This document shows positions 29,353-31,519 of a DNA stretch of 47,888 bases, in pieces (position 1 is the stretch's first letter; the number at the start of each line of letters is the position of its first letter). The DNA is from a virus (taxonomy: Duplodnaviria > Heunggongvirae > Uroviricota > Caudoviricetes): IMG/VR virus record IMGVR_UViG_2718218397_000005; one strand, written 5' to 3'. Under the pieces are notes generated by a model, which was not told where the DNA came from, made no database searches, and worked only from the letters and a program-made list of their open reading frames with translations. A program made the translations under genes and the position numbers.

Positions 29353-29678
29353 GCCTTAATAACCCCCTCTTTCAGCCAGATAACCTGTGTTCTCGCCATA
29401 CCTTCCAGCGCGCATTCTTTTGCATATGCAGCATCGACAAAATGTGTGCGGCGGTCGATTTCGTCGTGGCAGGCAGAACATGCAATGGTGGCAATCAGGT
29501 CTGGCGGTTTGGTACCGGTGCCGCACAATCCAGTCAGCCGGATATGTGCCAGTACAGACGTTTCAGGGTTGCCATTACATACGCCAGGGATTCTTACCTG
29601 GCATTCCCGACTACGCGCTGCTTTTCTCAAATCAGCCATGATTCCTCCTTGCTGCCAGTCGCAACCATTTTTTATCAA
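29349..29678 (-). CDS. Nin-region protein, YbcO-like (DUF1364), Cys-rich
   Basis: 109-aa ORF with Cys/His cluster (..[31 protein letters not shown]..); start overlaps rusA; true start may be internal Met14. Confidence 0.7.
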
Positions 29679-29870
29679 CCAGGCTGGCGGTATATCCGAG
29701 CAGTGTTGGTATTTCGGAAGGCTTCAGCTCCGGTTTACGCTTACGACGATCTGGTACTCTGTAGATGTGTCCGTTCATGACACGAATAAGCGGTGTAGTG
29801 TAGTGGCACACTAAATTTGGCCACCTGATGAAAGGTGATATTCTCACCACAACACAAAACAGGTGACTTA

Positions 29871-30182
29871 ATGAACAAGAAAACCAAACGAACCTTCACC
29901 CCTGAGTTCAGGCTGGAATGTGCACAGCTGATTGTTGATAAGGGCTACTCATATCGACAGGCCAGTGAAGCGATGAATGTCGGTTCAACCACGCTTGAGA
30001 GCTGGGTACGCCAGCTCAGGCGAGAGCGCCAGGGTATTACGCCCTCTGCCACACCCATTACTCCAGACCAGCAACGTATCCGCGAGCTGGAAAAGCAAGT
30101 TCGCCGTCTGGAGGAACAAAATACGATATTAAAAAAGGCTACCGCGCTCTTAATGTCCGACTCGCTGAACGGTTCACGATAG
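29871..30182 (+). CDS. IS3-family transposase OrfA (HTH DNA-binding subunit)
   Basis: ORF 29835-30182; probable start [38 protein letters not shown]...; ends ..[17 protein letters not shown], typical of the IS911/IS3 group. Confidence 0.85.
30131..30137 (+). promoter_or_regulatory. Programmed -1 frameshift heptamer A AAA AAG (OrfA to OrfAB fusion)
   Basis: AAAAAAG at 30131-30137 in OrfA frame as TT-A-AAA-AAG; OrfB frame is -1 relative to OrfA and open upstream of its first ATG. Confidence 0.75.
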
Positions 30183-30301
30183 CCGCCAGACTAAGTGACA
30201 GCCACACGGTTGTCAGCCTGTGTTCTGCTCTGGAAATACACCGCAGCAGTTACCGGTACTGGCGAAAACGACGCGATACGGTTAATCCGGCACGAGTCAG
30301 G

Positions 30302-31048
30302 TTGTGCAGCGAAATACGCCGGGCGTGGAACCAAAGTCGGGGCTCTGCGGGCGCGCGCACTCTGGCTGAAATGCTGACTCAAAACGGCGTCCCGATGAGC
30401 CGTTACCGTGCCGGACGTCTGATGAAATATCTGAACCTGAGCAGTTGTCAGCCCGGAAAACATCAGTATAAAAATGCCCGTCAGGAGCATACCAGCCTGC
30501 CGAATCTGCTTGAGCGTCAGTTCGCAGTACCGGAGCCAGACCGGGTATGGTGTGGAGATATTACGTATCTCTGGGCAGGAAATCGCTGGTGCTATCTGGC
30601 GGTTGTTATGGATCTTTTTGCCCGCAGGGTTATCGGCTGGAGTCTGTCAGCGCATGCCGATACCGCACTGATAAGCAGTGCCCTGCGGATGGCCTATGAG
30701 ACGCGTGGCCAACCCCGGGATGTCGTGTTCCATAGCGACCAGGGAAGCCAGTATACAGGCCTTAAATATCAACAACTTCTCTGGCGTTGCAGAATAAATC
30801 AAAGCGTCAGTCGGCGGGGAAACTGCTGGGATAACAGCCCCATGGAACGCTTCTTCCGCAGTCTGAAAACAGAATGGGTGCCAACGAATGGTTACGCAGG
30901 CAAGGACGAGGCCCGGCAGCAAATTAATGATTACATATTGAACTACTACAACAGCGTCAGACCTCACCATTATAACGGTGGGCTGACGCCGGAAGAGTCA
31001 GAGAACAGATACCATTTTTACTGTAAAACCGTGGCCAATATTACTTGA
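30302..31048 (+). CDS. IS3-family transposase OrfB (DDE catalytic domain; made as OrfAB fusion)
   Basis: 248-aa ORF from first ATG; DDE triad context (..WCGDITY.., ..[10 protein letters not shown].., ..NSPMERFF..). Confidence 0.85.
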
Positions 31049-31063
31049 CCACTACAGTAGCCA

Positions 31064-31519
31064 TTACGCCTCCTGCTTGTCGCGGAGCAGCTGGAACTCG
31101 CAGCTCTGCGGAATAGTCAGGTGGCAGCCAATATTCACCGCCCAGGCTTCAACCTTACACAGGAAGACATACATCTCTCCGGTATCAAGATCGGAGGTAT
31201 GGCGTAACGACTGGATAGTGGTGATATCACCGGTTACGACATCAACCAGGTCTTTGGTTTCATAACCGAGATATGTGTGTTTGAGAGCATCTTTTACCCA
31301 AGCTGGAGTAGCGAACGTTTTACCCCTGCTGATGAGGTATTCACTGATTTCGCTGTACCACATGTGGCTGAGTGCATTCTGGGAAAGACTGCGTTTCTCA
31401 CGCCACGGTTTAAGCACCATGCGAAAGCATTTGCCCTCCTCCAGATAAGGCTGGATCTGCCGACCGATAGCGGTGAAGTTACCGCGATGTAATTTGATGC
31501 CATCTTGTGGGAGATTCAC
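31064..31519 (-). CDS. ybcN: Nin-region protein YbcN-like
   Basis: 151-aa ORF (GTG start) [55 protein letters not shown]... Confidence 0.75.

Follow-up and report, generated by a model that had tools for sequence, protein, structure and literature searches.

The prototype of the IS3 family of insertion sequences is IS911 from Shigella dysenteriae, an element of about 1250 bp. IS911 uses an A AAA AAG frameshift and makes target duplications of 3-4 bp, two properties that recur in the element described here, and the TTGACC hexamer in its right inverted repeat (IRR) gives rise to a junction promoter when the transposon is circular. The nearest element with a name of its own is ISEc31. By ISfinder practice, isoforms of one insertion sequence (IS) usually share at least ~95% nucleotide identity. 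On the side of the target, transcription antiterminated by lambda N reads through polar signals carried by IS elements. The closest described insertions by position are found in the DLP12 prophage of E. coli K-12, where IS2 (rus-1) or IS10 (rus-2) upstream of rusA activates this normally silent gene and suppresses ruv mutations (PMC1636454).

We analysed a window of 47,888 nucleotides that matched E. coli JNE082640 (NZ_AP027206.1) with 100% identity and whose ninE holds an IS. The window holds a full-length DLP12-type lambdoid prophage at argU of this strain, bounded in the source record by tRNA-Arg/intD and the ompT side. In the RefSeq annotation the features that define this prophage type are all present, namely argU with intD, the gene series ybcN-ninE-ybcO-rusA-ylcG-quuD-nmpC-essD-rrrD-rzpD, and an end near ompT. 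Starting from the int side, exo/bet/gam/kil, a cI-like repressor gene and a Ser/Thr kinase gene lie on the plus strand, while the remaining prophage genes lie on the minus strand, except for an nmpC-like porin gene, iss/bor and ylcI. The minus strand is transcribed in the order cro-like, YdaT-like, O, P, emrE, ybcK, ybcN, ninE with its IS, ybcO, rusA, ylcG and quuD. Past quuD follow the nmpC-like porin gene (plus), essD/rrrD/rzpD (minus), iss/bor (plus) and lambda-like head and tail genes in a complete set (minus). The RefSeq order of ybcN to quuD bears out the first-pass annotation, which had placed the insertion upstream of rusA and Q on the minus-strand transcript. Like rus-1 and rus-2 (PMC1636454), the arrangement places an IS ahead of rusA within the nin region of a prophage of the DLP12 type. 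It differs from them in that the IS is a different family member and sits further upstream, about 450 bp from rusA, with ybcO in between.

Several neighbouring genes of the prophage are described here for completeness. The emrE multidrug efflux gene (34743-35075) and the ybcK serine recombinase gene (32960-34486) form minus-strand cargo in the region 32960-35445; as in DLP12 of K-12, this cargo separates replication gene P from the nin genes. Flanked by quuD and the lysis genes is an intact nmpC/ompC-like porin gene (27113-28195, plus strand); in K-12, nmpC is broken by IS5. An iss/bor serum-survival lipoprotein gene (25029-25322, plus strand) lies downstream of the lysis cassette. Downstream of exo, the region 43180-45667 contains a PAPS-reductase-family gene (43180-44424, plus strand) convergent with a SAM-dependent methyltransferase gene (44436-45038, minus strand), beside which lies a hypothetical gene (45035-45613, minus strand), and this group may serve in DNA modification or defence as a module. 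A match to Rfam IS009 (RF02111; 226.7 bits; 1039-1237, minus strand) fell within the region of the tail-fibre-assembly gene, adjoined by a Pin-like invertase gene (317-907).

The insertion itself was established by comparison with an unoccupied site. In strain NCTC9699 the locus was identical over 80 bases to the window from which the IS and one copy of GTAG had been removed, and this joined sequence encodes on the minus strand a ninE of 56 codons ending in ARRNHG, the same length as the NCTC9699 gene (171 nt, uninterrupted in RefSeq). A 3801-bp query spanning the site matched at least dozens of genomes, NCTC9699 among them, in two pieces with a record span of exactly 2539 bp. Since 2539 equals 3801 minus 1258 minus 4, the site in those genomes is free of the IS. 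The exact empty site with its single GTAG excludes a native fused gene. The split of ninE by insertion of an intact IS3-family element is therefore confirmed, and the occurrence of the same 1258 bp, 100% identical, at many other loci puts the case far beyond chance. The first-pass annotation had proposed a 1258-bp IS with a 4-bp GTAG duplication whose removal restores ninE, and all of this held. It had further placed the break after the third codon, where our comparison instead showed it to follow nucleotide 8 of ninE and so to fall inside codon 3. The 5' stub, reading into the IS, now encodes MATVVVK*, and the 3' part appears in RefSeq as a 48-aa 'NinE family protein' that starts from an internal ATG at 29778. 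Membership of the NinE family follows from the family-model score, which exceeds the cut-off, together with the full-length restored reading frame. The coordinates of all features are collected in Table 1.

Table 1. Features of the ninE insertion and of the adjoining genes, in coordinates of the window.
Feature	Position	Strand	Basis
IS3-family insertion sequence, complete, 1258 bp	29799-31056	+	NCTC9699 empty site; 100%-identical copies with different flanks
Target-site duplication GTAG, left copy	29795-29798	.	Single GTAG at empty site
Target-site duplication GTAG, right copy	31057-31060	.	Single GTAG at empty site
IRL, left terminal inverted repeat TGTAGTGGCACACTAAATTTGGCCAC, starts 5'-TG	29799-29824	+	Compared with reverse complement of right end
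IRR, right terminal inverted repeat TGTAGTGGTCAAGTAATATTGGCCAC, ends CA-3'	31031-31056	-	Compared with IRL
orfA, 103 aa, HTH_Tnp_1 DNA-binding domain	29871-30182	+	Pfam PF01527, 48.7 bits (cut-off 24.1)
A AAA AAG slippery heptamer, -1 frameshift	30131-30137	+	In register with orfA zero frame
orfB frame (-1), rve/DDE catalytic domain	30137-31048	+	NCBIfam NF033516, Pfam rve
Rfam isrC (RF01387) match over orfA start	29867-29989	+	150.4 bits, full model
ninE 5' stub ATGGCTAC	31057-31064	-	ATG overlaps ybcN stop codon (TAATG)
ninE 3' part, codons 3-56	29632-29798	-	NCBIfam NF007245, 135.7 bits (cut-off 88)
ybcN, intact, immediately upstream of ninE	31064-31519	-	RefSeq; NCBIfam NF007281, 277.8 bits
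ybcO, intact	29349-29639	-	RefSeq; protein identical to empty-site genome
rusA, intact	28990-29352	-	RefSeq; protein identical to empty-site genome
ylcG, intact	28853-28993	-	RefSeq
quuD, Q antiterminator, intact	28384-28767	-	phrog_79, Q-like, 1.7e-53
Downstream block ybcO-rusA-ylcG-quuD	28384-29639	-	RefSeq

Elements of the IS3 family are recognized by a length of ~1.2-1.55 kb, imperfect inverted repeats of the form 5'-TG...CA-3' and a target duplication of 3-4 bp, and in their coding part by overlapping orfA and orfB with an A6G-type heptamer, an HTH domain in OrfA, and a DD(35)E core followed by K or R at +7. The ninE element starts with TGTAGTGGCA and ends with GACCACTACA, so that its length, its TG...CA ends and its GTAG duplication all lie within this description. 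When we recomputed the terminal repeats, 20 of 26 positions matched between the left repeat (IRL) and IRR, with perfect agreement over the outermost 8 and the innermost 8 positions (the latter TTGGCCAC), and neither IS end had a further copy elsewhere in the window. A TTGACC hexamer within IRR (31045-31050) faces outward and, by analogy with IS911 biology, is the putative -35 element of a circle-junction promoter. In the coding part, the recomputed reading frames showed the overlapping frames with the heptamer, the HTH domain of OrfA and the DDE core of OrfB. The orfB frame scored 302.6 bits against the NCBIfam model for IS3 family transposases (cut-off 160) and 95.1 bits against Pfam rve, and also matched rve_3 and HTH_21. 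The predicted -1 slip yields a 392-aa OrfAB, open to 31048, with catalytic residues D230, D290 and E326 and with K333 seven residues past the glutamate. This product equals WP_085968792.1, labelled in RefSeq as 'IS3 family transposase, programmed frameshift', and the exact OrfA sequence belongs to a cluster of 2106 members. When we looked for a structure that would stimulate the frameshift, the fold of 30100-30215 had a z-score of only -1.8, with no clear hairpin directly 3' of the heptamer. The element is a textbook member of the IS3 family in which all of the sequence-level defining features that we tested are present, and family models and the empty-site comparison agree with the first-pass annotation on its identity, its intactness and its OrfA, DDE-motif OrfB and heptamer.

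An additional match was obtained to Rfam isrC, a Salmonella island-encoded Hfq-binding sRNA, which aligned with the first ~120 nt of the IS orfA. We read this match as homology of the Salmonella isrC locus to the 5' end of orfA and not as a separate gene in the window. A full-model match of 150 bits over orfA suggests in turn that the Rfam family was built on a remnant of this IS group, with no independent sRNA gene behind it. In Salmonella, isrC is located between envF and msgA (PMC2330248).

To place the element among its relatives we compared it with a second population of 1258-bp elements, 92-93% identical to it, which PGAP annotates as 'IS3-like element ISEc31 family transposase'. These elements share the length of 1258 bp, the ends TGTAGTGG...CCACTACA and the layout of orfA, frameshift and orfB. 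The nucleotide identity to an ISEc31-labelled copy, which served as the reference in place of the ISfinder entry, was 92.9% over the full 1258 bp, and the labelled protein (WP_085949589.1-type) was 94% identical over the 301 residues compared. Since 92.9% lies below the ~95% isoform level and PGAP gives the window copy no ISEc31 label, we rejected the assignment to ISEc31 itself or to an isoform of it, and the comparison identifies the ninE element as a sibling of ISEc31. In RefSeq, PLSDB and the protein clusters we found no name for it other than 'IS3 family transposase', and the papers naming ISEc31 did so only in MobileElementFinder tables. IS911 has similar inverted repeats (TGAAGTGG...TTGGCCAC) and probably a 17-residue end of OrfA in common with the window element. 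It is clearly a different element, with an OrfA that is probably only about half identical.

Copies of the element are widespread. Of 5426 complete E. coli genomes, 2415 contained matches, with a median of 2 and a maximum of 17 places. Copies at least 99% identical were present in 937 E. coli records, in many cases at 100%. A further 630 plasmid records, from Escherichia, Enterobacter, Klebsiella, Citrobacter, Salmonella and others, carried the IS, 309 of them at 99% identity or more. In deposited phage genomes we found no full copy and two partial matches only. The JNE082640 chromosome matched in four places, with alignment detail available for the best of these. We compared six 100%-identical copies, of which five lay in ybcN, a head-tail joining gene, an exoribonuclease-domain gene, melB and gpG, and the sixth between GTPase-family and ypjA/ehaD genes. 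Four of the 100%-identical copies carried 3-bp duplications of their own (ATC, AAT, TAT and TGA), and the 4-bp duplication at ninE is the less common of the two lengths that the IS3 family produces. The copies in E2863 and FORC_069, likewise 100% identical, had no direct repeat at their ends. In FORC_069 the genes on the two sides differ, which suggests an IS-mediated deletion or recombination.

An exact sequence found at so many loci with separate duplications is one that has been recently and repeatedly mobile, and the suspicion of the first-pass annotation that it may still be mobile is strengthened by these loci and by the plasmid copies. The ninE insertion was present in one of the 5426 genomes, that of JNE082640 alone. 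The nin genes on both sides of it are intact, ybcO and rusA encode the same proteins as in the empty-site genome, and the IS is 100% identical to other copies; together these indicate a recent event.

A second insertion was found close by. Five STEC genomes (e.g. S19-651, NZ_CP075852.1) carried a 100% identical 1258-bp IS in ybcN, 170 bp from the ninE site, in unchanged orientation and in the same prophage type. In S19-651 this copy occupies 3168-4425 of the compared NZ_CP075852.1 stretch, and it is flanked by a 3-bp ATC duplication within the palindrome GGTGATATCACC. The different target gene and the 3-bp rather than 4-bp duplication mark it as an event independent of the ninE insertion. That two separate events among 5426 genomes placed the IS 170 bp apart and facing the same way could raise the thought that the nin region of DLP12-type prophages is a preferred or selected landing site, where insertions are kept for damping Q-dependent late-gene expression or altering that of rusA. 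If insertions were retained for such damping, this would amount to a 'grounding' of the prophage. Two nin-region events are too few to call a hotspot, and we regard the idea as improbable.

We are highly confident that an active IS911-like IS3 element, related to ISEc31 as a sibling, has recently moved into ninE of this DLP12-type prophage, at codon 3. As extrapolated from established IS3-family biology, a -1 frameshift at A AAA AAG would produce OrfAB, which would excise a circular copy of the IS with abutted ends. These ends would then integrate into a new target and duplicate 3-4 bp, here GTAG.

The consequences for the operon depend on how its genes are coupled. The stop codon of ybcN overlaps the start codon of ninE in TAATG, and the stop codon of ninE overlaps the start codon of ybcO in ATGGCTGA; by these overlaps ybcN, ninE and ybcO are translationally linked. 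With ninE split, the coupling to ybcN is lost and this chain is broken, and ~1.26 kb of IS, whose transposase gene runs antisense to the ybcN-quuD operon, now separates ybcN from ybcO-rusA-ylcG-quuD. In a lysogen the insertion probably has no effect, as repression by the cI-like protein should leave the operon silent. Once the prophage is induced, partial Rho-dependent polarity on ybcO, rusA and quuD may result from the antisense RNA of the IS, which is presumably untranslated. Polarity on quuD would in turn make late-gene activation later or weaker if early transcription is not antiterminated, and N-type antitermination, where present, would override the polarity. The effect on Q that the first-pass annotation had suggested is plausible. 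Within the IS, a consensus scan of the minus strand returned one weak terminator-like hairpin (30490-30474), the number of terminator-like sites was no higher than in shuffled sequence, and a heuristic for Rho sites gave an unremarkable C/G ratio, near 1, for the RNA of that strand. These results, like the read-through seen with lambda N, speak against strong polarity, though the evidence is thin in both directions.

We weighed three other accounts of the locus. One holds that ninE was never continuous here and that the junction reflects either the native order of genes or an error of assembly. The junction is present in one genome alone, without a second assembly as independent confirmation, but the base-for-base identity of the empty site, the complete anatomy of the IS and the 3-bp duplications of identical copies elsewhere leave this account with next to no probability. 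Another holds that the IS is not polar but activates ybcO-rusA, and possibly quuD, in the lysogen through an outward or internal promoter. Activation of rusA by an upstream IS2 or IS10 is documented (PMC1636454; PMC10956419), and the ninE insertion too lies upstream of rusA in this prophage type. Unlike in the rus insertions, however, our consensus scan of the minus strand gave no sigma-70-like site, whether within the IS or directed out of IRL toward rusA. The sole outward -35-like hexamer, the TTGACC in IRR, faces the opposite way, antisense into ybcN, and the transposase gene is likewise oriented opposite to rusA. We therefore judge activation to be very improbable.

The third account, that the insertion is functionally silent, carries more weight, and we hold it to be a real possibility though clearly short of an even chance. 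Silence could arise from antiterminated read-through, with which the lack of a strong predicted terminator on the minus strand of the IS is in keeping, or from a prophage already so defective that Q is irrelevant. At the xis position RefSeq shows only a 66-bp remnant (46498-46563, plus strand), just upstream of int (46725-47888). With xis reduced to this remnant the prophage may be incapable of excision regardless of Q, whose level may then be moot for phage release. RefSeq also lists ylcJ (34544-34694) and a zapA-like gene (45699-45883) as frameshifted. On the other side, the head, tail and lysis genes look intact, and no N-like protein was recognised where one would be expected. No ORF between the Ser/Thr kinase gene (39292-40338) and kil (40982-41188) belonged to an N family, and when the presumed pL leader was searched for in the window by blastn, no second copy came up as a put- or nut-like repeat. 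The interval between these two genes (40341-40980, plus strand) contains a 54-aa ORF matching phrog_4063, of unassigned function. It also has a strong terminator-like hairpin at 40506-40535, and its non-coding DNA, about 450 bp long, carries operator-like CAATAGCAATA repeats.

Recent transposition of an active IS into ninE remains our preferred reading, and no observation spoke against the insertion itself. The event is real but ordinary, since this kind of event is known and the element is already annotated in RefSeq, and it has little significance beyond strain-level annotation. As a clean pair of insertion and empty site, it is usable for testing the polarity of an IS on the Q antiterminator in a DLP12-type prophage. 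It also documents the IS as currently active in E. coli, and adds one more case of IS elements eroding prophage genes.
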